From: Jimgerdemannia flammicorona
Lineage: Eukaryota
Direction of reading: 5' to 3'
Assembly (NCBI GenBank): GCA_003990765.1
Contig: RBNJ01000307.1
Coordinates: forward strand, 1 to 33,497
DNA length: 33,497 nucleotides
The translations under genes and the position numbers were made by a program. This document shows positions 1,909 through 32,042 of the stretch, one piece after another. The notes beneath the pieces are model-generated. The model made no database searches. It had not been told where the DNA came from and saw only the letters and a list, made by a program, of their open reading frames with translations. Each line of letters starts with the position of its first letter. Position 1 is the first letter of the stretch.

Positions 1909-2613
1909 ATAACTACTAGTTTTGACCTCTTCTGCTAGTATTTATAGAATTGGCTACTGAAATGAAAAAAAAATTATACTGAGGTTATATTTATTGACAA
2001 TAGTGATATATAAGAAAAGAAATTTTGTATAGTAGAGATCCTCAACTATCCTTTATATATATAGTATCTAAGAAGTCAATAAAGATTAAGTATTTAAGAT
2101 AAAGAAATCTATTATACTTCCTAAGTTAAGTATCTACTATATTATAATATATAAGTTTAACTAAAATAAAAAAGATATTTATATATTAATCTATTTTTAT
2201 AATTTTAACAATAAAGTAAAATATTAAATTAAACTATATTTAATTTAAAAAAATCTTATTTTTAGATTAAAAAAAGTAAAAAAAGTAAAAAAAGAAAAAT
2301 TCATTATATATTATATTTAATATATTTTAAATAATTATTAATAGTATTAATTATTTATACTTTTATCTAAGGATAAAAGAATAATAAATCTATAAATAAA
2401 ACTTTGTCACATTATATACTCAGATATATGAGATTCTCAATTACTAAAATAGGGTATAGTAATTTATTCTCATCTAAATCAATAACTCTTTATATGAAAA
2501 ACAGATATAGTATAAGCAACTTAGTAATATTTGTATAATAACAGAGAATTTCTCAGATCATTTCAGTAGCCAATTTTGTAAGTGCTGGCAGAGGGGTCAA
2601 AACTATTGGTTAT
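1909..2613. mobile_element. Non-autonomous TIR (MITE-like) DNA transposon, ~700 bp, decayed
   Basis: Left end 1909-1965 (ataactactagttttgacctcttctgctagtatttatagaattggctactgaaatga) matches the reverse complement of 2558-2613 (ataaccaatagttttgacccctctgccagcacttacaaaattggctactgaaatga). They differ by one indel and mostly C/T changes. The interior is very AT-rich with no ORF. Possible TA target-site duplication. Confidence 0.8.
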
Positions 2614-2981
2614 TCACTCTGACCGTTTCAGTATATGTAAAGGCCAGCATGTGCGAATGAGACGGACAAAGGGAGGGAAAGACCCCAATTTTTGCTTATC
2701 GGTCCGCTTGCTGCGAGACAATCTCTCGTAACGTGAAATCGTCAACGAGAAACTAACCAACTGTAACACCGCTTCGATTCTCTCCGTTTTCGAAGCGAAT
2801 TTTGTCCCAAGACGAAGCGCGTGCAATGATCGACATCCATCACCCTAATATATACCATGAATGGGTAGAACAATAAAATGATGTTTTATCCAAAACTCCG
2901 TAATTTCACTAGAGATCGCAATAAAAATAAAAATAAGAAATCTCTGCCGTGAAATAAATTCCTACCTCCCGTCTTGGCATT

Positions 2982-3610
2982 CTAGCTCAGATATATCTCC
3001 TCGGGGTTCTCGAGCTCGTCTAGAACCTCGACCCGCGCCAGCCGATTGTTGTGGGCATCGAGGCGGGACGTGGATTGTTATGGCGAGCTATACGATATAT
3101 GATAGAAGGTCAGTAAACGCGATCCACAAGTCAAAAATCTTCAAGTACGAAATATTTGCATGAACACAAACGAAAAGAAAATGGTTGCCTTTTACCCCAG
3201 AACAACCCTCACGAATCATATACAAGGGAAAAGACAAGCGTCTACCGACCTCGCAGTTTGTTTCATAGCAGATAATTCCAACAGCTTCAAGACAGGAGGT
3301 CCAATCTGGTATATGCAGCAAATGTGCGAGTTTATTGACCATCTATTACGATTCCTTCAATGGGGTTTTGAATAGGAAGTTGACGGGGGGGGTTTTTTTT
3401 TGAGGGAGATGAACTTAGCTAATAGAGGTGGACGAGGGGTGAGATCTAAAGCAATATGGGTGAGAATTTAATAAGGCATTTATTTATTTATTTATTATTT
3501 TTGGAGGGATCGGCATACTCGTTAGTCGAGCTTCTGTAGTCGTTCGAAGTCCTTCACGACCTCTTTGCTGAATCGAAAGGTCTGGCACAATCAATGCTTG
3601 ACCTACAGGT
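2982..3610 (-). pseudogene. Possible decayed Sds22-like leucine-rich-repeat gene fragments
   Basis: Minus-strand pieces bounded by GT/AG-like sites read ..ERLQKLD*, ..VNKLAH..LKLLELSA/NKLRE and ..RLDAHNNRLARVEVLDELENPEEIYLS*. These resemble SDS22-class LRRs (LxxLxLxxNxIxxIxxL) but contain stops and frameshifts. Confidence 0.3.
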
Positions 3611-12084: not shown

Positions 12085-12509
12085 AAGGATGTTATTGGGT
12101 TGGGGGAGGGGGGCGCAGGTGATCTGTTTTTTCTCTTGTTCAAAGATAAGGGTGTGTCGGTCGAATGTCGGTGGGTAGGGATTTGAATGGTTATTAGACA
12201 CGAGGTATATTTTCTATTTGTATCGATTGCATAGGTCAATGTAGGGGTTGTACCCATGATTTCACATGTCTTGGTTATCGATGGTCTGACCGCTTAGCGA
12301 CGATTAATTTTGCACATGACTGCGAGTGCAAATTTCTCAGAAAGGGTCCGTGTGTGGGTGGGGCTGGAATCAAGATGGCGTTAGAAGCAGTACTTAAGCT
12401 GCGATCAACTATCCAAATCTCATACTCAGTTCTGATCCGTTGCCGCAAATACCGCCACTTTTGCACCTACACCCATATCCACACACCCCCACACACTCGT
12501 AAATACACT

Positions 12510-14393
12510 ATGGCCTTGCAGAAAGAGAGAATCGTCATTATTGGCTCTGGCAACTGGTATGTACCGATATCCCTGAAAACGCCAATTGCAAAGCCAATAT
12601 TTGCGGCCGTAAGCTAACTCCTCGTAACCACCAACCTCACTCCCAATGCCACAGGGGCTCCGCTATCGCCAAGATCGTTGGCCGCAACATCCAGGCCTTC
12701 CCCGACATCTTCGAGCGGGAGATCAAGCAGTGGGTCTTTGAGGAGGTCATCAACGACGAGAAGCTCACCGATATCATCAACCGCGAGCACGAGAACGTCA
12801 AGTATCCTTTTTGTGCTTGCCTTTGGCGAGCAGCCATAACATTGGTCTGCGTCGTTGGAAAACTGGGGTGTTAGGGTGACGATATTCGGTGGCTTGGCTG
12901 CCGTTGTGATCGAAGAACCGAAAGTAGAGTGGGTAGAATGTACGAACCCATGTTATCCTTAACACTCCTCACCTCGCACCGACTCGCTCCAACAGATACC
13001 TCCCTGGCATCAAGATCGCGGAGAACGTCAAGGCGGTCCCCGACCTCACGGACGCGTGTGAGGGCGCCACCATTCTCGTCTTCGTGCTGCCGCATCAGGT
13101 ATGTGTTTGCTTTGTGATTGTGCGCGTGTCGTTTCTGGGAATCTGTGGTTAATACGCCTCTGCGATGTGTGGGTGCTGTAGTTTTTTGACTGTTGTTTCT
13201 GCTCTCTCGGGTGTTATGATGTGGGTTATAGTTCGCCAAGGGCGTATGCAATAAGCTCAAGGGCAACGTCAGCCAGAACGCGAAGGGCATTTCTTTGATC
13301 AAGGTATGCGAATGGTTTATGAGTTTTATTACGTAGTGACTTGATTCGCTGGGGGGATTGAAAAGGCCGGAACAGCGGAACAATGTGCAAAAGTGATCCG
13401 CTTGCATAACAAAACAAAACCCCTGCTCCCCCTTTTCTTTCTCTCTTTCAACCCATCTCAGGGCGTTGACGTTTCCGAATCTGGCATCGTCCTCTTCTCA
13501 GAGGAGATTGCTACAGCGCTCAACATCCCGATGGGCGTTCTCAGCGGAGCCAACATCGCCAACGAGGTCGCGCTCGAGAAATTCTGCGAGACGACCGTCG
13601 GCTCGCGCATCCCTGAGCACGGCGACCTCTACTTCAAAATGTTCAACACTCCTTACTTCCGCGTCCAGGTTATTCAGGACACCGTTGGCGTCGAGCTCTG
13701 CGGTGCCCTCAAGAACGTCGTCGCTGTTGCCGCCGGTCTCTCCGACGGTCTCAAATATGGCGACAACACAAAGGCTGCCATCATCCGTCGCGGTCTGCTT
13801 GAGATGCGCAAGTTCGGAAAGACTTTCTTCGGCGGTGTCCGTACTGAGACCTTCTTCGAGAGTTGCGGTGTCGCGGATCTCATCACCACGTGCGCGGGCG
13901 GTAGGAATCGTAAGGTTTCGGAAGCGTTTGTCACGTCGGGCAAGGTATGTTATCTTGTGGAGGTGCTGCGAAGGGGAAAGGATAACCGGGGTTGTGCGAT
14001 TGGGTGTTTGTGGGTCTCGAGGCTATGTTGGTTGTACATGATGCTGATTGTGTCCTTTTTCGTATCGATTTCTGTTTGTATAGCCCATTGAAAAGCTTGA
14101 GGCTGAGATGTTGAACGGTCAAAAGCTTCAGGGCACGTCGACGGCGCAGGACATTCACAAGTTCCTTTCCACAAGGGGGATGTGCGAACAGTAAGTATCA
14201 CGCATTCAATTTTGTTGCGATTACGTTGTGCAGAGGTTGGGAATGGGTGATTTGTGCTGGATTTGTGTTGTTGAGCTTCTGGCGCTCACAATCTGTTCCT
14301 CCATTTGCGCAATCCAGGTTCCCTATGTTCACCACTGTCTACCGGATTATCTACGAGGGCCTGCCTTCCTCCAAAATCGTCGAGGATATCTAA
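12510..14393 (+). CDS. GPD1: NAD-dependent glycerol-3-phosphate dehydrogenase, 344 aa; exons 12510-12556, 12655-12801, 12996-13098, 13232-13303, 13462-13944, 14084-14190, 14318-14393
   Basis: [83 protein letters not shown]. Exon lengths sum to 1035 nt, in frame. Confidence 0.97.
12802..12995 (+). other. U12-type (minor spliceosome) GT-AG intron, GPD1 intron 2
   Basis: 5' splice site GTATCCTTTTT, branch box TCCTTAAC at 12956-12963, 3' CAG at 12993-12995. Removal restores the conserved HENVK-YLPG. Confidence 0.9.
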
Positions 14394-15102
14394 GCCACCC
14401 GTTGAAAGGGCAAATCGTAGACCAGGGTGTATAATTTGGAGCCCAAACGTAGATTGTTTTTCAATACACGAGATTTTTACTCATCTGCCTCCAAAAGATC
14501 TTCATTGATTGTACAAATATAAACCCCGTCGTTATTTTTTCTTATTTCCTTCACTACCTGTTATCTGTCTTTATCTCGATCTTCACTGTTCGAAGGAAGA
14601 ATAGAAGAATATTTTTCGAGCACTATCCTTTCCATCTCTCACGCCATGCGATGTCCTCGATACGGCATCGTGCAGACCGTGCTAAACTCCACGTGGAATT
14701 AGGTTTCCCACGGTGTCCTTAAGGACGCGTATCAGTTTCGATCGGAGACATACAGCGCGGCCTGTGCGCGCTGGGATCTGGGTGTGCAGAGGGCAGGGAG
14801 AGGAGTTGGAGCCAATGGAATGGACCAAGCGGTCGCCGATTATCAATCATGTACGGGCCATGAGTCATAGATGGTTGGCAAACCGGTTTCGCGATATATA
14901 TATATACATATATTTCATACAAAGCAGCATATAATTTCGCGATGACTGCATCCGACATGTTTTCGGAGCACAAGATGATCGGCGACCCTGCAACGTCGCA
15001 CCCGACTACCATATGACACGGAAAAATACATTTATGCGCCAACCCCATCAGCACATCAGCGGAGACCCGTGCCGAAGACCTAGACATTTGTAGGTTTTTC
15101 GG

Positions 15103-15138
<36 letters not shown>

Positions 15139-15301
15139 TCACAAAGGTTGTTGGCGGAGCTTGTAGTCTGGTAATATGGTGTCGGGTTTTCTTTCTTGAC
15201 GGTGTAATTGTATGTTATTGAGCCAATGTGCGAGGTTTTGGAAGGCGAGAAAAAGAATTCATGGTGATTAAATATAATTTAGGGCTCCTAAAATCACAAC
15301 A

Positions 15302-15373
15302 AGCAGCGTAGCGCAGAGGAAGCGCGCGGGGCTCATAACCCCGAGGCCGGTGGATCGAAACCACCCGCTGCTA
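15302..15373 (+). tRNA. Initiator tRNA-Met (CAT)
   Basis: Cloverleaf: acceptor AGCAGCG/CGCTGCT with A1:U72, D-stem GCGC/GCGC, anticodon stem CGGGG/CCCCG with loop CTCATAA, T-arm GGTGG-ATCGAAA-CCACC (A54, the eukaryotic initiator signature). A T-run Pol III terminator follows at ~15388-15394. Confidence 0.97.
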
Positions 15374-15754
15374 CAGTTTATATATGTATTTTTTATCCCC
15401 CTATCTATATTCTTACTTTTATACCTTTTATATTATTAATCCAGTAGATTCAATTGTATTTTCATACATATCAAATTCTTGATACGAAAATTCGTAGTAG
15501 TATATTGCAAATACGGATATCCAAACATCTCTGTGGTCTTTCTAGTTGACAAGGAGGACTTCTAAAAATTAAGAAGGATGATATTTCTGACTCATAATCT
15601 CAATGCCACTCCTGCGATGGGAAACAAAATGTTTTTTGTAAAATATCTTCTCTAGGTGACGCGGGCTAAGACCCGTCTTGGACATCTGTGATGACGGAAA
15701 AGGTTGCGAGATGAAGTGGTGGCTTTGGTGAAGAATCTATAACCTCGCACTAAT

Positions 15755-16598
15755 TCATGAATAATTCTTACCGGCATCATTGGATGGTAATATCGCTTTG
15801 CGAAGCAAGTCGTTCCTGGATGCAATCATTAGAGTGTTCGATAACATGTACAGAAACATAGGAGGCATTAGTAAAGAGCAAAAAGCGTAAATGTCAAACC
15901 TTTCCGTGATCATGGAAAATAATGCAGCGCATCACATTTCGGCCTTCTTTCCTTCATTACTATCCTGTTTCCCTCTTGCTCAAGCACCAACTATCTCATC
16001 ACCCTCCCTCCTCCGAGAGCATGGCAAATTATCTATTACCTCTGTTTGAAATCAAGAACCAGTCGGTTTAAGGAATCCATTGACTGAGGTATTACACGTT
16101 CGCCTTGATGCTGTCGAGTCCTGTTATTGGTGCAGCAAGCGACAAAGAGTGACATTAGCTTCACTCTTAACATCGCCGAGTGGATTTCGCTTCCAACATC
16201 GCGGAATGGAGAGTATATTGATCCGAGCGCATTCACAAACTTTCGATAGTACAAACAAAAATCGAAACGGTTGGAACGCACTCCTCTACAGATATCCCCT
16301 CTATAGTCAGCATCATCATATCCGTCGTCTCTCCGCCCATGTTGGTCGACAACGCGGCAGTCGACGACGCGACGGCCTCGACCCGGCACTCGGTAACCTG
16401 GAATAGCGGACTGTAGCTGTCCGCGCCCACAACCTCGGAGCAGGTGTCCGACAGGTCGACAACGATGCAGCCGTCCTTGGGCACCCCACCATCCAGCTCC
16501 TCGTCCTCAAAGACGTAGTGCACCACCGGGTGTCGGTGGGATTGCGCGGTGTGATCCTTGATGACGACGAATTGTGGGATGCTTGGGTTGGAAGACAT
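15755..16598 (-). CDS. Atg31-like autophagy protein (putative), 152 aa; exons 16598-16282, 16120-16040, 15815-15755
   Basis: Spliced product MSSNPSIPQFVVIKDH..HPVVHYVFEDE..CIVVDLSDTCSEVVGADSYSPLFQV..LTIEGIS..SLNRLVLDFKQRNDLLRKAIL.. Motif order matches Atg31 (P.xIxYIFED, VIIVxLD, C-terminal amphipathic helix). Exons sum to 459 nt. The gene model is firmer than the family call. Confidence 0.6.
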
Positions 16599-16971
16599 GG
16601 CGCTGGGGAGGTACGTGCGTTGCTTTTTACGCGAAGAGTAATGGCGACTGCAGTGGGCAGTCGGGTTCTGCGGACTCGCGCCATGTGACGTCTTGGCCAC
16701 GTGTTACAAAGGCTATGACATCATCAAACGTGGTGTCTTATGATTTACAAGTCAATCAAGAACAAAACAGACAGAGGGGATAGGGGAAACGAGAGAGTAC
16801 AACCTCAAACAATCTCTATATAATGGGATATGTACACTCTAAAGGCTCAAATGAGGAAACCAAGGTAATCGCCAAGATGATGGTGAGAAGCCAGAGAGGG
16901 GCTAATCGAAATACCCGAACAAGATGCACACATAAGCAACACGTAAGCTGCCGTGAAACATACCGCGGACC

Positions 16972-17010
16972 AAAAAGAAAAAAAAGAAAAAAAAGAGAAA
17001 AGAAAAAAAG

Positions 17011-17083
<73 letters not shown>
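16972..17083. repeat. Long poly(A)/A-rich tract
   Basis: About 70 consecutive A preceded by AAAAG-type units. The Lys/Phe ORFs here are artefacts. Confidence 0.9.
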
Positions 17084-17085
<2 letters not shown>

Positions 17086-17417
17086 GAGAGGACATCCCCG
17101 TTTCTGATCAATCCAGAAAAGAAACCAGACACAAAAAGATTAACATGATCTAATTGTATGGAGCGAAGCCTTGCCAATGACATATGCTAGAACAAATGTA
17201 TAGCGGGTAACATATGCAAGAGAACGGGGCGGAAAAGGGGAATGTGGACGAACAAGACGAAAGGTACGGTATTAGAATATAGACAATGACGATGAACCTT
17301 TGATCGAACATTAAGAAATGCTAGGTAATGTATGTACTATAAGATGACGAGCATTAAGCTTGATGCTCGAGAGATAAGGTGGAGGTGGACGGCGGGTAAA
17401 GAGGAAAACGTTCAAAG

Positions 17418-17449
<32 letters not shown>

Positions 17450-17714
17450 TTGCCAACATCAATACTGGACGGCAAAGGGGCAAAAAAATGGATTAATTTT
17501 GTGTCAAGGGGAAATTGGAAAAATGTAGGGAGAAACGAAAACAATGAACCGGATACATGATGCGATGTCCTAGGTTGGTTTTATATCGATCATTCCTACC
17601 ATTCTTCAAATATCCCAGCACACGCGGGCAAAAATTGTCTGTTGCTTTACCCATTATTTGCCCCTCCAACTTACCGCCGCCATTGCAAACGTGCGCATCG
17701 ATTCTGGAACGTCT

Positions 17715-20197
17715 TCACTCCGACACAACCATTGCCGGCATCATGAACCTATCTTTCTTATGCTTTTTCTTCTTCTTGATGGACGCCGTCCACGATGGCC
17801 TCCGATCCATCGAGGTATTCGAATGTCGATGCGTCCGGTGCACGTGCTTGTGGTGGTGGCGATGCGTGCGATCTTCCTCCCGCACGGCGTCGTCGTCGTC
17901 CTCAACGTAGTAAACAGGCTGGCCCCTCTCGTCAAACATGTCCGCCGAGCTCTCATACCGCGAACGCTTGTCCCGTTCCTGGTCTCGCTGATGGTGCTTA
18001 TGTTTACGCTTCGCCGATGACGATGAGGACGAAGCCTCAGGTGGTGGTGGTAGGAGCGCTGGCGGGAAGCGGGGGTCCGGGGGTGGGTAGTACGAGTAAA
18101 ATTGATGCGGAGTTGGAACTGGGGTCGGTGAGACTTCCTCGGAGGAGGATCCCCGGATGGATTCCGGCTCGTTATACGACATGTATGAGTCGCCACGGTG
18201 CATGTAAGGCGCGACTGATGTCGATGCCGACGGGGCGTAATAGTCGTGTTCGTAATGACCAGAATCGTAGTACATCTCACGCGGCCGAGATAACTCCTGG
18301 AGCAGCCCGTACTCGTACTCGCGCCCGTCGTACACTGGATCGCGTTCGTAGTCTCCGTAAACGGGCCGCGGCTCGTCCTCCGGCGGGTAGCTATACTGTG
18401 ACTCGTCTTCGTATTCGTATTCAGGTTCTTGTTCCGGGTATTGGTCGTATTCCCTGTCTCGGTCACGGTCGCGATGGCGCCGGTGGCGATGTGACCTATG
18501 TTCCCGGTGATCGAAGGCTGGCGGCTCGTGCATGAGCACCAAGTCGGCGTCGATGTCTTCGGAGGGGAGGCCTTGCGGGAGCGAACGTGTTGGGAGAATG
18601 CCCATCAAGGGATTAAGAGTTAAGGTAATAGTGATGAAGATGACTGGACTTAAATGGACCAAATCAAAAGTGCAGAAACGCATTTCACATTGCGCGAGAA
18701 GGATATTAATCATGAACGGTCTGATATTCGGGACATAATCCTCAGCGCCTTCCTCGTCCAGAGCTGTCTCGGATGTAACTGAATGAACACAGTAGAAACC
18801 ATGCAAAGCCGATTTAACGCCGGAAAAGACAATCGTATAAACACAAAACATTAGTATCAAAGCTTTGCCAACTACCTTTGGGGAACTTGAGTTTGATCAG
18901 CTCATTATGCAATGATGTTATTTTACGTTGAACATCCTCTAACATTGACCTTCGTAAGGCCAATCGACCAAACTACATATCGGAAATCCCGAATAAAGCT
19001 ATTCAGTAACCAAGGGGTTTCTTCTTTTCCTTCTTCTTTTGAAGGGCAGTGACTGCCTCATATAAAACACGATACAATAAAGCAAAACACGATACAATAA
19101 AGCGAATGAAATAACTAAATACCGCGAAATCATCAAACGCTTGCTTCTCAGCTGCGTGAAAGAATTTGCGTGTGGACACCCGAGTATACTCCAGGCGTGT
19201 TTGCGCGATCTGCAGCTTCCGCCGTCGTTTAGTTTCAATGTCGTCCAGCTCCTGACGGAATCCTGGGTGTGTTCCTTCTTCGACCTGTCTTTGCATGGTA
19301 TCTAGTTCAGCCAGTCTGTAAAGACGGAATATGGGATGTCCATAAGTAAATGGGCGATATATTCGCATGAATAAAGTGTGGGAAAGATCCAAAATAGAGG
19401 ATGCCAGGTGGATATGTATGAGAAGGTCTTTACCTCTCCTGTAATAGTGCTTCTCTCCGCGCTTTTTTCTCTTCCCTCGACAGCTTCGGTGCTGCCACCT
19501 CGACTTCGCTGTCGTCGGACTCGTCATATTCGGCGGGGTTCTTGGCCTTCCCTGGCAAGAGCCCGTTTGCCTTGGCCGAAGCTCCGCGACCGCCCTTCCG
19601 CCGCTTAGGAGTGTTGATCGTGTCGGGTGGAGGGGGCTCATTCTCGTTGGGTTCCGCCACGGGCGCAGTCAGTCTAGTGGACTTGCGGCGTCCGCCCGGT
19701 TGGCTTGGGTCCTCCGACGGCTCGGCCAGCGAGGAATCTACGGAGTGCGAGCGCGTGGGCATTCGGAACTCGGTCGCCTCGCCCGATTCGGACACGGGGG
19801 TAGACGATCGTGCGTGCTCCTCTGGCGGTTGTTGTGGGTCCGAGGGACCGGGTGAGACAGTGTTGGTGGTTGACGATTGGCTCGCCCGTCGGTTGGTGCG
19901 GGTATCACGCCGTGCGGTTTGGCGGACGGATGAGGACGTGGACGGCGAGGAGACTGTCGCTCTGGGTGTATTGGCCTGCTCCTGCGTCGGCTGCGGGTCC
20001 GAATCTTGGGTGGGAAGCGGCATGGGAGCTTGTGAATCGCTATCCCGACGAGCAGTAACTGCAGGGACGGGCGTAGAAGGTAGTGGGGGCGAAGGCTGTT
20101 GTGGGGTTGGCAAGGCCTGAGCCGTTGCTCGGGACCGAGTAGATATCCGGGGAGGCTTATTGGGCAGGCTGGGAGACCTCTCAGTCTTTGGCGGCAT
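17715..20197 (-). CDS. Sds3/Dep1/BRMS1-like Sin3-Rpd3L HDAC complex subunit, ~665 aa; exons 20197-19434, 19315-19123, 18972-18876, 18778-18707, 18586-17715
   Basis: Low-complexity P/S/T N-terminus, then an Sds3-like coiled coil (LQERLAELD..EEGTHPGFRQELDDIETKRRRKLQIA..AEKQAFDDFAFGRLALRRSMLEDVQRKI) and a GLPSEDIDADL motif, then a Y/E/H-rich tail ending in KKKKKHKK. Exons sum to 1998 nt. A 5'UTR intron is possible (donor ~20382). Confidence 0.75.
18587..18706 (-). other. U12-type AT-AC intron (120 nt, in frame, stop-free) in the Sds3-like gene
   Basis: On the minus strand: 5' splice site ATATCCTTC at 18706, branch box TTACCTTAAC at 18628-18619, 3' ...CCAACAC at 18587. Both ends are phase 1. The intron translation is hydrophobic and unlike the flanking exons. 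Confidence 0.8.
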
Positions 20198-22232
20198 ACT
20201 GGAAGGCTGCGGTGAGACGGAGAGGGAGAAGGGGGAGAGCTGTGAGTGGTTTTGGGGAGAGGGGGGTATATATGGGGGGAGAGGAGAGGTGCGGAAGAGG
20301 TGCTCAAAGCGAAAGAGCGGAAGGAAATGGAACATGATTTTTCAATCCACGCACACAACGGGCATTGCCTCCCGATACATACCTTCTGTTATCTCGACGG
20401 CGTTCTATGGGGTTTCGGCTGTGCAAAAATCCTGTATTCTGCAAAAAACGACAGTACGTTGTATAGCTCGAGGTATAGTCTATTTTCTTTGTGTTGGTTG
20501 CGGGCAATTTCCGATGGAGTGGAGGGGTTCAAGAGAGGAAAGGGACTGTAACAGCAACGAGCGGACAAATAATCTTGTCACTAATAAGGAAACCACATCT
20601 GTCCTCGCTGACATTTTTTTGATTGGGGACTTTGGCCATGATCATTGCGTCTGAAATCGATGCTTTCCGCGAACCCCCCAACCGACCGAACCCCGCTACC
20701 CATTTTCTGCTTGCTCACACACCTGCGGACCCCGTTCCGCGACCTCCTTGCCCCACCGTGCCTGTTATTCTGCACAACTACCGTTAACTTGCACCTCGAT
20801 ACATACATACCAAGATGGTTTCCTCGCGACCTCCACTGACTGTGCCATGCTATCACATGACATATGACGTGGAAGACAACATGCTTTGACGCGATTCATA
20901 TCGGTAAACGAGTGCTAGAACATCCCACTTTTCAAACATTCCGATTTAAACATAATGTAGTAACAATCGCGAAATCTACTAGCTTGGTTATGCTACGTTG
21001 GGTTACCAAAATATGACCACACTAGCATTTTTAGATCTCTTCAAAGTTATTAGACTTCTCCAAGTTAATGAATACAACTCCCGAGTACAACTAAGACGGT
21101 ATGAAACTTACGCCCACCTCGACACCCGCTTCGTGTTATTCCAGCACAGTGAAAGGGTTTGTAGCCTTGGAACTTGAGCTAACCATGTGACGAGCAAGGA
21201 ACGTGACGTAGTTCTTTTTGGTTTTGCCACGCACTGTTAAGGTATGATTCGTCGGTTCCGTAAGCGAACTTTGTGGGGAAGTATACATGAACGATTGTTC
21301 ACATGTGTGTCACATTACTTGAACTGTTGCCACATGTGCTATGGGCGCATATCATTCATTTTCCAGAAGTAGGTCAACAACCTCTTTGACGTGTGGTCAT
21401 CTCATGGACCTATTCTCCGTACTCTGAACTATCTAATCTAAGATGCCCCAGATCCGAATAATATATGCGTCTATTTTTTTATTAACCGATTCCCAGACCG
21501 GACTGCCCACCTCAACTGCCACGGTTTCGATCCATTTTGGGAACAGCTTAATGAGGGTTGCGCCTCGCCCGTCCCACCTAGCCACCCGTCCTTTAACGGA
21601 AGTGCGATCTCGGTGAATTCACACACGCATTAGTCGATTTCGGTCCTTGTGTATCCCCTGATGCATGCCACGTCAGAACCGCGTCCGTTATTACCATTGC
21701 ATGCCAGCCGGATATCCTTAAACGAGGTACGCCACCCACAAAATGTCCATCCATGCGAGTGATAGCGGTAATCGGTAAGAGTTGAGGTGGCGAGACCGCG
21801 TGAAACTTCATTTATTAGTTCGCCGTCCGGAGATCTGGATTCGGGCTACTTTGGAGACTATATTCCTTGTTTGGGAAAACTTATTGCCCCGACCACACAT
21901 GATATCCAAAAATTTAAGGTGATGTTGGGACACGGGGATGACGTCACATTGTCATTTACTATGTGTCGTCGAAACGAAATTTGAATGAGCATTGCGACAC
22001 TGCTACTATGGTCATCGACTTTGTCGCGGCATCGCTTCGCTATTAGTGACATGTGAATGCAGTTCGGTGTGGTCACGATCCAGGCTTTCTTCCTTTTTTT
22101 TTTTTTTTTTTTTTTTTCTCATTCTTTGGTTTTTGAATGAGGGTTTTCATCTGCAAAGACAACCAATGCCACTCTGTTTATAACTTGTGTTTCCTATAAT
22201 TCCATTCCGTGTTTCTTTCTAATTTGTAATTT

Positions 22233-26375: not shown

Positions 26376-27086
26376 GAGGAGAGCTAGGTCGCGTTTCGCC
26401 AAGTCACAATGAGGTCCCGTCACGTGTCATCCCAAAAATTCAAAAGTCCCATAGTTGCGATGGTGCCGAAGAGCAACATTGCACCACCAGATTTAAAATT
26501 AACCTGTTTCTTTGGCCTCCTCGGCACCAACTCTCCGCACGGCTTGCCCAATTTTTCGGAAGTCTGGCAGCGCTTGTCAGGAACCTTAGAACTGACAGAG
26601 AAAATTAGCCAATAACTGACTGTGTGGAAGATCATGTGCCAAATCATGTGCAAGATCCCGTGAAATGACGTGTAGATTACTTACTGTCGCTGTCACGGAG
26701 TGCTGAACCCGGTCCAGACAGAACATCTATATTCTGATACAGCCTACCAGGTAACTAATTTGGCACAGGTTAGTACTTATTAATGTGGCCTAAATCTAAC
26801 TTCAACTTACATCTAGTCCATATCTAGTAGTATGATAAAATGAAGCCAGAAACTTCTGAGATATTAAAATATATCTAGCATACAGTATGGTAAATTTTTA
26901 CCAAAAAGACTCAGAATGGGTTGAACCTTTGAGACCAAAAGCCCAACATCTTAATAGGGCAACCAACTCTCTATAAAAGGTTAAGAAAAATTTGAGAACT
27001 CAGCTTAAGCTCTCTAATATTTTTATGTTCCTCAATATCTTTATACTCAGTATTCTTAAGATTTCAAGATATATATATTTTTGGGA

Positions 27087-27124
27087 GTTTTTTTTTTTTT
27101 TTTTTTTTTTTTGTTTTTTTTTTG

Positions 27125-27165
<41 letters not shown>

Positions 27166-27188
27166 GTTTATTTCATTTTTTTTTTTTT
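27087..27188. repeat. Long poly(T) tract
   Basis: Interrupted T-runs spanning about 100 nt. Confidence 0.9.
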
Positions 27189-27309
27189 GTATTTTCTTAT
27201 CTGTCTTTTTTGTACATCTTTTAATTACTGTTTAATTTGCACATTTTCTAGTTTTCTGTTTCACAATAACTAGTCAGATTGTTAAAAATATTCAGGCCAA
27301 ATTTTGGAA

Positions 27310-28140
27310 AGACAAGACAATAGATGAAAGAGTCAAACTGGGCAACAAACCTAGTGCTGAAAGTTATGGTATAGTTTTTGAAGAAAGTCAACTAGATGGA
27401 GAGATATGTATGGTCAAGATATTAAGTAGAGAAGGTGCTATGTCATTTGATATTACTATGATTAAATGTGAGATAAACTTACTTCTTAAACTCAATCACT
27501 CTAATATTATATGAGCTTCTTAAGCATATTTGACTAGAGATTCCACATCAATCGAGATAGAGTATACTGAAGGACTGGTGGCTAATCTTATTAATCAAAT
27601 AAAAGAAGAGGCTGACTTTCAAAACTCATCCTCATCATCTTCAAAGAGCTCCTCAATGCAATATTATACCTGTACAATAATAAGATTACTTACTACAATA
27701 TCAAGCATGATAATTTACTGTACAAATCCAGTGCAGAAGGTTTATATATCATACTTTATAACTTTAATATATTAGTTAATATTGAAAATGATATAGTATA
27801 GCTAATACTTAGTTTGCCTGCATATAAATCATCTGAATTAATTGATAGTTGTCAGTTAGATTATATTCCATTTATAGCTGACATCTGAGTTCTATCTATT
27901 ACACTATATATCTTACTGACCTGCAATTTGCTATAAGATGAGATATAAAAGACAAATGCTATATACCAGAGATATCTTTATGACTATAGAACTATTTTTG
28001 GTCCAACCCTGCATCTGTGCATATTGATAGAAAACTTAATTCTTAGAGAACTAATGTACAATCTGAAACTTCACCCTGATATTCATATTTCACATAATAT
28101 TTATAGAGATTAAAGAGCTGTGGAAGATAAATAAATTACT
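27310..28140 (+). pseudogene. Heavily mutated Ser/Thr protein kinase pseudogene
   Basis: Subdomains appear in order but degraded: SAESYGIVF (Gly loop), CMVKIL, EINLLLKLNHSNII*, IEYTEG, YLYNNKITYYNIKHDNLL (catalytic loop, 27667-27720), LYNFN (DFG, ~27760), AYKSSEL (APE), ADI*VLSITLYILL. Many stops and frameshifts. Confidence 0.8.
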
Positions 28141-28539
28141 AAAGCAGTCATTGATATCAGATATAGGTGAAATCAATGTTACTAAGAGGTTGAAAATATC
28201 AGACAGTGACAAATGTATTTGTTATAGTGAGGCTAGTATGACAGGCTTGAATTATTCATTCAAAGGTCAGTGGGAGAACTACTAGATTTGTAAAGAGTGT
28301 CTTTAGTCAGTAAAAGAGATATTATTGATCAGCATTAATAGTGCATATATATTTGGAATAATAAAAGAAAGTACATAATCTATGCAAATTTTTATTTCTC
28401 TCAGATTCATTATAAAAATAGATTTTGTATTACTTTCAGAGATAATTTAGAAGATTATATAGTTGTATTATCAGTAGACTTAATGACTTTTTTACCTTTT
28501 TTTTTTTCTAAATAATGTTTAACAAATATCTGTTACTAT

Positions 28540-28959
28540 CTTTGACAACTCAAGATTGAAAAGGAATATAATGCATCTATCTTAGCTTTCCTTATCAAAA
28601 GACTGAAGATAAAAGAACTATTGGTATTCATCTTGATTTTGGATATCAAAGCTCTCATCTTGGTATTATATCATGAACTGTATAATGACAAGCTACCAGT
28701 GACAGTATTAGACTAACATAAAGCCCTATATAAGATATATATAGAATAGCTATAGAAAATGTTATATCTTCAGCTATCAACAGACAAGATAATAGACAAA
28801 TTAAGGCTAGATATCAGTACTATAATACTAGCTTTATTTAAAAATCCTTTAGTTTTATCTCATAAACACATCTTAGCAAAAGGGCTTATACTAAATATAG
28901 CTATAGTAGATGATGAGAATAAGATTTGTAAAATTATCAATAATATTTATGAAGATTGA
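28540..28959 (+). pseudogene. Decayed ORF of unknown identity inside the AT-rich block
   Basis: One frame is largely open (QLKIEKEYNASILAFLIKRL..KIINNIYED*) with few stops. No family recognised. Confidence 0.25.
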
Positions 28960-29243
28960 TTTTAATAAACAGCTAACTGCATTTTATTATTATAACTTTA
29001 TTGCTGCAAAAGTATAATGATAATCATCTCCTTTAGATTATAATAAATAGCACCACTTTATCAGATTTGGGTTAACTATATGAAGTATATATACTATTCA
29101 CAAATGTATAGCTATTTCCAGATAATATACCTAGCTATATCCAATATTACCCCAGCAAGGTTGGTGGCTATTAATACCTCAATAATAGAAAAGAAATCAG
29201 GCTTCAAGCAAAGTCTGTGATTAGGTAAAACTGATATACTTTG

Positions 29244-29307
29244 GAATAGATTCAGAATAGATTTAGAATAGATTTAGAATAGATTTGGAATATATTTGAA
29301 ATAGATA
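29244..29307. repeat. 11-bp tandem repeat (GAATAGATTTA-like, ~5.5 copies)
   Basis: gaatagattca gaatagattta gaatagattta gaatagatttg gaatatatttg aaatagata. Confidence 0.8.
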
Positions 29308-29389
29308 AGTATCAGTATTAGTGAGATTCTACTTTATTGTATTATATATTATCTGCTTACTACTTATTAATATACCTATTCTTTCCAAG

Positions 29390-31170
29390 TATAATATTCC
29401 ACAAAACAGGTTTGCTCTTGATTCAGATAAAGAATGACATTGTATATTTGATAGATAATATTGCTCTAGGGTGAGTTCTTTTTATTAATTATGATTTTAT
29501 CAGTCTTTGTTTGTGACCAATACCATATATATGTCTTATACTAGTCTCTTATAGTAGGTAAATAGTTATTGAGAAGAAGTCAAGAGAGATCTAAATCATA
29601 GAAATCTTTGTGATGTGAGAGTTCTTTGGATATTTAGAGTTTGGTAGTATCTGTTCTTTATGGCTATACTTGCATATCTTTCTCATTTTCATTTATTTTT
29701 CTTTCTTATCTGCTAATATTATAAGGCCCCAAGCTAAGTCAAGTTGAGAGTTTTTGTAGTTAGAGACCCATCTGTCTTATACATAAAGTATGAATTGATG
29801 ATTGCAATATCTAACAACTAGAAGAACATTGGCCACTAATTTCTTTTGGCTTTAATTTGTATATAGTAATATGCTCAGAGTTGGTTGGCAATATTGACCT
29901 CTTCTATATGATAGTTGTAATTATTGATAATCTTTGGAATCTCAATATCTATAGAATATTTGTTTCTCCAGATTGCTTAGACTTGAGTTTTATTGACTTT
30001 GGTTATTATTAGATATCATTGCTTATACTTGATTTTCTATTTTGCTTCTTACAATTTATAGATAGTAGTTAGTATTTTGACCACAGAGATATTCTTCTAT
30101 AGCAATACTAGAATATTGTTGATGACTACCTCTAATAATATATTCTAGTTGAGCTCTTTCTCTTTACTATATTTAATTTTAAGTTTCTCTAAGAATTATA
30201 TTCTATCTATTTTAACTGTTCTATATGCCCCAATTCTTTTTTATTGTAGATATTTGAATAGTGGAATACTGGAAAAGTATCTATCTATATAGATGTTGAA
30301 TCTCTAAGTCTTAGGTAATTGTTTGACTAGGTGAATCATAGTACATATATACTATTATACCAAACTTATTATTATCATCATTCTTTATCTCTTTGCTTTT
30401 AGTAGTACACAAATCTGGAAGAAATATCTATATATAACTATGATTACATAATGCAAAGACCTTGTAACTCTTCAAGATCAGCTTAAACTTTATATAGTAA
30501 ATATATAAGCTTCTGCCTATAAACCATATTATCATCTCATCAATAGATATATTAGAACTTGGTCAATATATTGTTTAGGATATTTTTTGAATATAAGATA
30601 ATAATGGCTCAAGTTTTGCCATATATTAATCATCATTGTATATGCTATATAGGAGAAATATAAAGGAATCATTTGATTTGTTGGAAGTAAAATAGAGATA
30701 TATATTCAAGAATGTGGTGTTTTGACTTCTAAAAGTCTATATCCCACTACTACTCAAGACTTCCTTCAGTGTAGAAAAGGCCAAAGTAAATACAAATAAT
30801 AATGAAGATAAGAAGTTCAGGTACTATTAGAATCTTCCACTCTCTACCAGTTATAAGATCCTTTATCTTCATTGTGGTATAGTAATTCATATTGGTAATA
30901 ATTATTTTTAGCATCTTATTAGAGAAGAAGAGATAGAAGACTTTAAGAATAGATCCAAGATGCTTAGGGAGAGCAGGCTTTAAGTAAAAAGACTTTTTGT
31001 ATTTGAGGTATATAAAAGTAGAAGGGTCAGATAAAGGTTTATTATTATTATTATTATTATTATCTATAAACTTATTATCCACATATTTATCATTATTGTC
31101 CATATCCTCATTATCATCCTCTACATTCTTGTTGTCCATATTCTTGCATTCTCTATTCTTATCATCCACA
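29390..31170 (-). mobile_element. Degenerate piggyBac-superfamily transposase relic
   Basis: Minus-strand motifs in order: FYLFFSNKMLKIIITNMNYY..W..ELLIFIIICIYFG, PSSNISIDEMIIWFIGRS (~30510-30560), YKVFALCNHSY, YIDRYFSSIPLF..IGAYRTVK, EEVNIANQL*AYY (from GGVD.ADQL), WPMFF*LLDIAIINSY, and a C-terminal Cys-rich remnant (CF..Y). Many stops. Confidence 0.85.
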
Positions 31171-31447
31171 TCTCTATTATCTATACCCTTATCATCTATG
31201 GTGGAAATGGTGAAAGTGATAGATATAGCCTTGTTTTTATTTTTATCATTGATAGTTGTGTGACCTGGTTAGCATAGAATCTCAACCACAATGATTTACT
31301 TCCTTTTGCTGCTTTTTCTTATGAATTCCTAGAGCATAGAGATGGTAGACATAGAGGTAGATATAGCAGTAGAGGTGGAGGATAGATATAGTAATAAAGG
31401 TAGAGAGTGGGTATAGTAGTAGAGATGGAGAACTTGAGTACTTTGTA

Positions 31448-31582
31448 AGTAAACTTGTTTGCTTACAAAGAACTTATCTGCTTGCTGCTTTCATATGTAG
31501 GTGAACTTGACTTATCTGCTTACTGCTTTTATAGGTAAACTTATTTGCTTACTATTTTTATAAGTAAACTTATTTGCTTACA
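31448..31582. repeat. Degenerate ~30-bp tandem repeat (GTAAACTTATTTGCTTAC core)
   Basis: About 5 imperfect copies of aacttrtytgcttrc, just 5' (on the minus strand) of the piggyBac ORF. Confidence 0.65.
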
Positions 31583-32042
31583 TTATTGATATGAGTATGA
31601 GAGATATATAGGATAAGAGTTTGTCATAATACAGTGGTATTGCATAGAACTATTTCAAATACTCTTTATACTTATACTAGATTGTTGTTTCATAAAGTCT
31701 TGATTTGGACACTATAAGTCTACAAGCCTATAAGCCATAAGATGAAGACTATAAGATTATTAGGAAATTGATAATAAAGGGCAATGAACAGGCAGTATAT
31801 AGACAAAGACTGTCAGATCTTGAGTAATATGTTTGCTAAGGAATTCCTCATCAAGTATGTCTTCTGAATAATTTCTATAAGATTTCCAAATAATTTCTGA
31901 ATTATTCCAATAGACTTAAGCTTATTTAATTTGACATTATGTCATCATCCTTTATTATATTAAAAGCTCTATTATCTGTCAAAGAAACCCATTACTTCTT
32001 AGCTCCCTCTTCTCTGTTTCTATTCTACTTAGTACTCTCAAT

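Follow-up and report, generated by a model that had tools for sequence, protein, structure and literature searches.

An AT-AC intron in an Sds3-family gene of Jimgerdemannia flammicorona is of the U12 type and probably very old

Jimgerdemannia flammicorona is a root-associated early-diverging fungus. The window analysed here, the whole of a 33,497-nucleotide stretch of its DNA (contig RBNJ01000307.1, assembly GCA_003990765.1), carries on the minus strand an Sds3-like gene whose reading frame stays open through a segment with the ends of an AT-AC intron. Is this segment removed from the transcript, which spliceosome would remove it, how old is it, and does its open frame matter? The first-pass annotation had answered the last question by proposing that minor-spliceosome activity could switch between protein isoforms.

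The region 12300-20500 was compared with the assembled contigs of two public runs, which come from two studies and show the same 14 joints. Since all 14 joints listed fall at splice sites, both runs show cDNA, though their records bear no RNA label. One contig in each run joins 18586 to 18707, skipping 120 nt. The joint reads GT..AT on the plus strand (AT..AC on the minus strand) and has 0 ambiguous bases. The predicted junction 18707^18586 is present base-exactly in both runs, and this transcript joint is the decisive support that confirms the AT-AC intron. The gene is organized as follows, in the order of transcription.

20383..20480, minus strand: exon 1, 5' untranslated region, 5' end approximate (joint 20206/20383 and contig offsets)
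20207..20382, minus strand: intron 1, GT-AG, 176 nt (contig joints, sequence)
19434..20206, minus strand: exon 2, with the ATG at 20197 and a P/S/T-rich low-complexity N-terminus (contigs; start the same as in RUS34879.1, P0001, and in the Endogone model P0002)
19316..19433, minus strand: intron 2, GT-AG, 118 nt, phase 2 (contig joints, sequence)
19123..19315, minus strand: exon 3, Sds3 coiled coil with a GTHP motif (Pfam PF08598, E 2e-5 for the exon alone)
18973..19122, minus strand: intron 3, GT-AG, 150 nt, phase 0, at a position common to the paralogue L044 and the Mortierellaceae-like locus L042 (contig joints, alignment)
18876..18972, minus strand: exon 4, 97 nt, equal in length to the matching exon of the paralogue (contigs, alignment)
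18779..18875, minus strand: intron 4, GT-AG, 97 nt, phase 1, at a position common to the paralogue (contig joints, alignment)
18707..18778, minus strand: exon 5, 72 nt, linker (contigs, sequence)
18587..18706, minus strand: intron 5, the last intron, U12-type AT-AC, stop-free (sequence and joint 18586/18707 in both runs)
18698..18706, minus strand: U12-type 5' splice site ATATCCTTC (sequence; predicted to base-pair with U11 and U6atac of the genome at their 5' ends)
18619..18628, minus strand: best branch box TTACCTTAAC, with the putative branch A at 18620, 32 nt from the intron end (sequence)
18604..18618, minus strand: tandem candidate branch-like boxes TCTTAAT and CCTTGAT, weaker, 25 and 17 nt from the intron end (sequence)
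18587..18589, minus strand: acceptor CAC, used (contig joint and sequence)
17457..18586, minus strand: exon 6, the last, with the rest of the coding sequence, the stop codon TGA at 17717-17715 and the 3' untranslated region (one unbroken contig piece)
18540..18584, minus strand: motif P.GL...[DE]I..DL, aligned with the Sin3-interaction segment of SUDS3/BRMS1 (pattern; human alignment by eye)

Exon 6 is unbroken from 18586 to 17457 in the contigs, which makes the AT-AC intron the last of the gene. In the window sequence this intron runs from 18706 to 18587 on the minus strand and splits codon 376 (Ser376) in phase 1; its donor, box, acceptor, length of 120 nt and phase are confirmed as first described. 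From 18706 onward it reads ATATCCTTCT, which matches the donor pattern RTATCCTT, and CCTTAAC at 18625-18619 agrees with the branch-box pattern CCTTRAC. The 3' end is CCAACAC; an AAC 2 nt upstream of the CAC acceptor is unused in the contigs. The spliced product reads PFMI-S-SLPQGLPSEDIDADL. Apart from the 18706 donor, no AT-type U12 donor on either strand of the window is followed by a branch box. The window has a single instance of donor, box and AC in that order, compared with 0.023 per block-shuffled window (300 shuffles), which taken alone is modest evidence. By the features examined, 18587..18706 is a U12-type AT-AC intron, and its motifs suggest that the minor spliceosome acts on it.

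A genome-wide count of the motif pair was tried as a significance test and abandoned: there were 153 matches, compared with 88 when the order was swapped and 583 when the pattern was reversed, and the count is uninformative because repeats dominate it. A tighter AT-AC pattern gave 22 matches genome-wide compared with 8 for its reverse, about half of the 22 being repeats by eye.

Across exon 6 a second reading frame stays open for 287 codons (window 17741-18604, minus strand). Splicing to the unused AAC acceptor would lead into this frame, and the resulting protein would lack the Sin3-binding motif. No such splice form was seen in the transcript contigs of the two runs, and the second frame is probably a by-product of low-complexity codons.

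An ORF finder does read through the AT-AC intron, as had been claimed: the open frame 17715-18896 spans it. The frame originally given, 17715-18860, shares the read-through, but 18860 is a TTG within intron 4 and not a real start. To call the intron hidden is apt for the public model of this contig, which misses the junction, but not for RUP46551.1, which already has it. RUP46551.1 (P0008; 690 aa, from another assembly of J. flammicorona) differs from the splice model only by 25 additional residues at the N-terminus and 1 substitution, and the junction it carries was thus already implicit in a public protein. For this contig the public model is RUS34879.1 (358 aa), which enters intron 3 and ends there without reading through the AT-AC intron. 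The Endogone model P0002 likewise ends in intron 3 and is uninformative on the AT-AC site. Because both stop in intron 3 (window 19003-19122, minus strand), both lack the Sin3-binding motif.

The spliced product has 665 residues, comprising the P/S/T-rich N-terminus, the Sds3 coiled coil, the linker, the motif and a low-complexity tail. Its assignment to the Sds3-like family of the HDAC complex, made from the outset, is borne out by the PF08598 score of the spliced form RUP46551.1 (37.9 bits, above the curated cut-off of 25.4; E 2.6e-9). In a profile search S. pombe Sds3 (E 8e-4) ranked above Dep1 (0.013), both being weak matches. This rank, together with an intron offset equal to that of human SUDS3, gives hints only that the gene may be an SDS3 rather than a BRMS1/Dep1 orthologue.

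The motif P.GL...[DE]I..DL stands directly after the minor intron and is kept, as a pattern, in 15 of 17 fungal homologues. According to PMC10224958, a short helix of yeast Sds3 or Dep1 engages the HID of Sin3. PMC8800102 places the Sin3-interaction domain of Sds3 about 30 residues before a Tudor domain at 250-326, which fits the position of the motif. The motif after the junction thus appears to be the short helix by which a subunit of Sin3/Rpd3L would bind the Sin3 HID. Searches of the PDB with single exons or with the motif found no Sds3 chain. The homologue searches were shallow (1, 2 and 18 matches, and 6 matches including 2 of repeat junk) and returned no protein of Glomeromycota or Mucorales; of the metagenome scans, one gave 0 loci and another 1 locus.

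An Sds3-family search of the genome found two further loci, a paralogue (L044, G000:C201) and an intronless copy (L043, G000:C8825). The paralogue has an AT-AC intron at the aligned site which, like that of the window gene, is in phase 1, has a length divisible by three (3n) and has a distant branch box. It differs in being 168 nt long, in having two in-frame stops and in being followed by one more intron, whereas that of the window gene is the last. Three successive introns of the two genes stand at matching positions and in matching phases (0, 1, 1), with an exon of 97 nt between the first and the second in each gene. Aligned to the paralogue, the spliced form of the window gene continues through the motif (score 92), whereas the retained form breaks off (81). 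The intronless copy contains the AT-AC junction of the paralogue; of 7 junction 30-mers, 6 match exactly. Being intronless, this copy serves as a natural cDNA for seven introns of the paralogue, the AT-AC one included. It is a processed copy, 5'-truncated, with one internal stop, and adjoins AT-rich DNA.

Is the intron position older than this genome? SUDS3, BRMS1 and BRMS1L of human and mouse are all minor-intron genes in the supplement of PMC6717393. The minor intron of human SUDS3 is intron 7, described as U12-type AT-AC in PMC8280824 and PMC11039992; the supplement of PMC8280824 gives AT-AC ends for SUDS3 and BRMS1L and GT-AG ends for BRMS1. The human flanks in that supplement (10 exonic bases before and 6 after the intron) were placed by eye on the human proteins of the PMC13173789 supplement, and the human-fungus alignment at the intron site is a 15-residue motif compared by eye. 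Placed in this way, all three human minor introns are in phase 1 and closely precede this motif. The codon split in SUDS3 is, by our own count, that of Ala205, and the conserved L, I, D and L follow at +6, +11, +14 and +15; in the window gene L, I, D and L follow Ser376 at the same offsets. In BRMS1L, L, I and D are at +7, +12 and +15 after the split codon, as they are in the fungal paralogue.

Like human SUDS3 intron 7, the intron of the window gene belongs to a gene of this family, has AT-AC ends, is in phase 1 and stands at the same offset from the Sin3-interaction motif. The human intron differs in being 1004 nt long and not 3n, with its box 9 nt from the acceptor, whereas the fungal one is 120 nt long, 3n and stop-free, with its box at 32 nt. 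In SUDS3 further introns follow, and so does a capped Tudor domain (PMC8800102), whereas here the last intron is followed by the low-complexity tail. The minor introns of BRMS1L (AT-AC) and BRMS1 (GT-AG) share the family site and the phase, but they are 981 and 1335 nt long and, like the intron of the fungal paralogue, are separated from the motif by one residue more.

From these agreements we infer that the fungal and human introns descend from one minor intron of the common ancestor of fungi and animals. The match with SUDS3 might instead be fortuitous or result from independent gains, with the fungal intron arising within Mucoromycota. Such an origin would suit the fungus-human similarity at the site, which is limited to a short motif, the published tree, which leaves the orthology of fungal and animal Sds3/BRMS1 proteins unsettled (PMC13173789, section 5), and the Mortierellaceae-like locus L042, where the intron 3 position is present and there is no intron at the AT-AC site. 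It would have to reproduce a rare intron class, the AT-AC ends, the phase and the residue offset alike in two fungal and two human paralogues, and neighbouring intron positions are also common to the fungal paralogues; we regard it as very improbable.

The branch box TTACCTTAAC was correctly reported in the first-pass annotation, but its distance from the acceptor went unremarked. The acceptor is 32 nt from the end of the best box and 25 and 17 nt from the ends of the weaker ones; in the paralogue the best box is 47 nt away. The published optimum between branch and acceptor of U12-type introns is 11-13 nt (PMC3584512), a strong tendency and no strict definition, and in the three homologous human minor introns the box lies 8-11 nt from the acceptor (PMC8280824 supplement). 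Most other AT-AC candidates picked in the J. flammicorona genome have the box at 8-18 nt, showing that long spacing is not the rule of this genome. The stretch from the best box to the acceptor contains no AG, and the only earlier AC in it is that of the unused AAC 2 nt upstream. This would fit scanning to the first CAC. With best boxes at 32 and 47 nt, the two fungal copies are natural substrates for testing the strictness of the U12 distance rule.

A branch box so unusually far from the acceptor might mean that the major (U2) spliceosome removes the intron, or that either spliceosome can do so, and that the U12 motifs are relics. Major AT-AC introns do exist in human (PMC8280824), and a genome search gave no match for U4atac, a blank that does not show absence; the same holds for the U11-48K zinc finger (zf-U11-48K). 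Other components of the minor spliceosome are represented in the genome: U11 snRNA (65.4 bits, over the cut-off), U6atac (14 matches over the cut-off), a full-length U12-like snRNA (46.3 bits, E 5.6e-6, under the curated 53-bit cut-off) and a CCDC84/CENATAC-like exon (26.7 bits, just over the cut-off). The 5' regions of the snRNAs are predicted to pair with the donor and the box region of the AT-AC intron. Given these genes, the full ATATCCTT donor with its CCTTAAC box, a position common to known human U12 introns, and further candidates with donor and box between open frames elsewhere in the genome, removal by the U2 spliceosome has only a very slight chance of being correct.

The locus is best explained, with high probability, as an ordinary, very old U12-type AT-AC intron, the last in the gene of an Sds3-family subunit of the Sin3/Rpd3L deacetylase complex. 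U11 and U6atac would read the donor, U12 would read a branch box, and the first CAC downstream of that box would serve as acceptor. Removal of the intron would join the coiled-coil linker to the Sin3-binding helix. Any regulation would be of the usual minor-intron kind, in which slow splicing limits the amount of mature mRNA.

Other introns of this type can be proposed in the genome. When 52 of the pattern loci were examined (30 of the 153 and all 22 of the tighter set), about 14 were picked by eye as candidate minor introns between open frames, among them L015, L022, L030, L031, L038, L039, L049-L051, L055, L057 and L058; the 14 include the AT-AC introns of the window gene and of the paralogue, and the others are putative. 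By their translations, some of the flanks resemble SMC3, NAD kinase, TatD and an inositol polyphosphate kinase. A human minor-intron table lists an A-type minor intron for SMC3. The window itself has a second minor-type intron at 12802-12995 on the plus strand, GT-AG and in phase 2, with the donor GTATCCTTTT and the box TCCTTAAC. It is spliced in both runs, and its box is 32 nt from the acceptor. The gene containing it is, as we assume from its sequence, a glycerol-3-phosphate dehydrogenase (GPD) gene; GPD1 and GPD1L are in neither of the two human minor-intron tables searched.

Eight of the 14 U6atac matches were examined (L003-L010, on G000 contigs C4139, C11555, C2721, C19399, C4534, C176, C2742 and C20606). 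Exact direct repeats of 14-18 bp flank five of them (L003, L007, L008, L009 and L010), and those of L006 are near-exact; some of the repeat-flanked copies stand after a T run. By these marks the repeat-flanked copies are classed as retroposed snRNA copies, which are known for mammalian U6 (PMC4476161), and L004 looks like the source gene. In the window, AT-rich blocks at 2000-3000 and 27000-32000 have a GC content of 0.27-0.30, compared with about 0.50 in the gene-dense core; they are likely to be decayed repeats.

There remains the question of the open frame. Retention of the AT-AC intron would, as was pointed out at first, add 40 residues without a premature stop, the frame being open and the product 705 instead of 665 aa long. 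A regulated switch can be imagined in which slow minor splicing gives a 705-aa protein with 40 hydrophobic residues before the Sin3-binding helix, leading to weaker complex assembly or acting as a degradation mark. The open frame would allow this, the linker tolerates changes in length (110 to 151 residues), and splicing may be slow with so distant a branch box. In addition, the human SUDS3 intron shows partial retention that responds to the minor spliceosome, its PSI rising from 0.16 to 0.59 on CENATAC depletion (PMC8280824 supplement).

The spliced form alone was assembled in both runs, leaving the proposed isoform switch unsupported. No contig of either run covers the AT-AC intron; contigs drop rare forms, and low retention is possible. 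The depth of the bin 18602-18875 was 14.3 in one run and 7.36 in the other, equal to 54.3 x 72/274 and 28 x 72/274, which is what the 72-nt exon contributes alone, in agreement with the lack of an assembled retained contig.

Among 17 coding introns checked in the window gene, the paralogue and the GPD gene, one is both 3n and stop-free. Shuffles of the AT-AC intron were stop-free with p=0.18, or about 0.06 when the 3n condition is included, and this combination is probably a chance state of a short intron. The predicted AT-AC intron of L038, a candidate of 93 nt, is also 3n and stop-free. The open frame is not kept in homologous introns: that of the paralogue has two stops, and the mammalian introns (1004, 981, 1335, 1061, 218 and 1024 nt in the PMC6717393 supplement) are 3n in 2 of 6 cases and not in the other 4.

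Nor is the retained sequence special. The insert, described as mostly hydrophobic, is not unusually so, its hydropathy (GRAVY 1.0) being matched by 7% of stop-free shuffles, as expected of a T-rich intron. A transmembrane-like insert was considered and rejected; the best 19-residue window, 1.74, is reached by 17% of shuffles. The RNA fold of the intron shows nothing unusual (z 0.09). When the insert was compared with 15 homologue linkers, 33-196 of 200 shuffles scored as well, that is, it matches none of them better than its own shuffles do.

A 40-aa gap in orthologues had been suggested as a check. When run, the comparison was not clean: the gap exists relative to the linker of Mortierellaceae, which is about 40 aa longer, but that linker is unrelated in sequence. 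The distance from the GTHP motif to the Sin3-binding motif is 110 residues in the spliced form, 121 in the paralogue, 131-151 in 15 fungal homologues and 150 in the retained form. The last value equals the spacing in the Linnemannia homologues, whose linker is Cys/Ser-rich and of unrelated sequence. That the longer Mortierellaceae linker might be an exonised copy of the intron was also considered; the idea was dropped rather than refuted, there being no similarity above that of shuffles and no donor remnant seen in L042. The Mortierellaceae Sds3-like proteins (P0009-P0023; L042:2720-2810) have a conserved Cys/Ser-rich insert with CxxC, placed after the coiled coil and ahead of the Sin3-binding motif, which may be a small metal site.

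Exon-junction-dependent NMD relies on a junction located downstream of the stop. No junction follows the AT-AC intron, which is the last, and the stop-free state is therefore less needed for escape from NMD than was originally assumed. According to PMC3584512, unspliced minor introns are believed to be kept back in the nucleus and degraded there. On balance, a regulated switch at this locus is improbable. A fuller version, to which we give a similarly small chance, is that in Endogonales the ancestral intron is now a tunable switch, in which the far box would make splicing slow and retention, the intron being the last, 3n and stop-free, would yield a stable 705-aa Sds3 with a 40-residue hydrophobic wedge before the Sin3-binding helix. 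If that were true, minor-spliceosome activity would set the make-up of the Rpd3L deacetylase complex at the protein level.

Minor introns have been reported in varying numbers in early-diverging fungi, with 205 in Rhizophagus irregularis, 249 in Basidiobolus, about 4 in Rhizopus and about 20 in Phycomyces, and a subset of them is at positions common to animals (PMC10639083, PMC2846911). The present intron is like them in its motifs, in the phase-1 bias and, probably, in belonging to such a conserved subset. Jimgerdemannia, Endogon-, SUDS3 and BRMS1 are absent from the main text of PMC10639083, whose external database or tables may list the intron. BRMS1L is named in PMC3728624 as a gene responsive to the level of U6atac. 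Within the sources it covered, our literature search found nothing on this intron, on minor introns of Jimgerdemannia or on conservation of the SUDS3/BRMS1 minor intron with fungi, and it gave no match in the supplement of PMC7367187. There is no new mechanism here, since published work already covers the minor introns of such fungi and the conservation of a part of them in animals. What appears to be new is the ancestral position, which matches the offset of SUDS3 in the window gene and that of BRMS1L in the paralogue.

The public model for this contig is corrected, as RUS34879.1 loses exons 4-6 together with the Sin3-binding motif. For the family, the locus would provide a transcript-supported case of a minor intron whose codon position has stayed the same in early-diverging fungi and in humans, and in both copies of the Sds3/BRMS1 family. 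The conserved position would date the intron to the ancestor of fungi and animals or earlier, and the intron may serve as a marker for sorting Sds3 from BRMS1/Dep1 orthologues.
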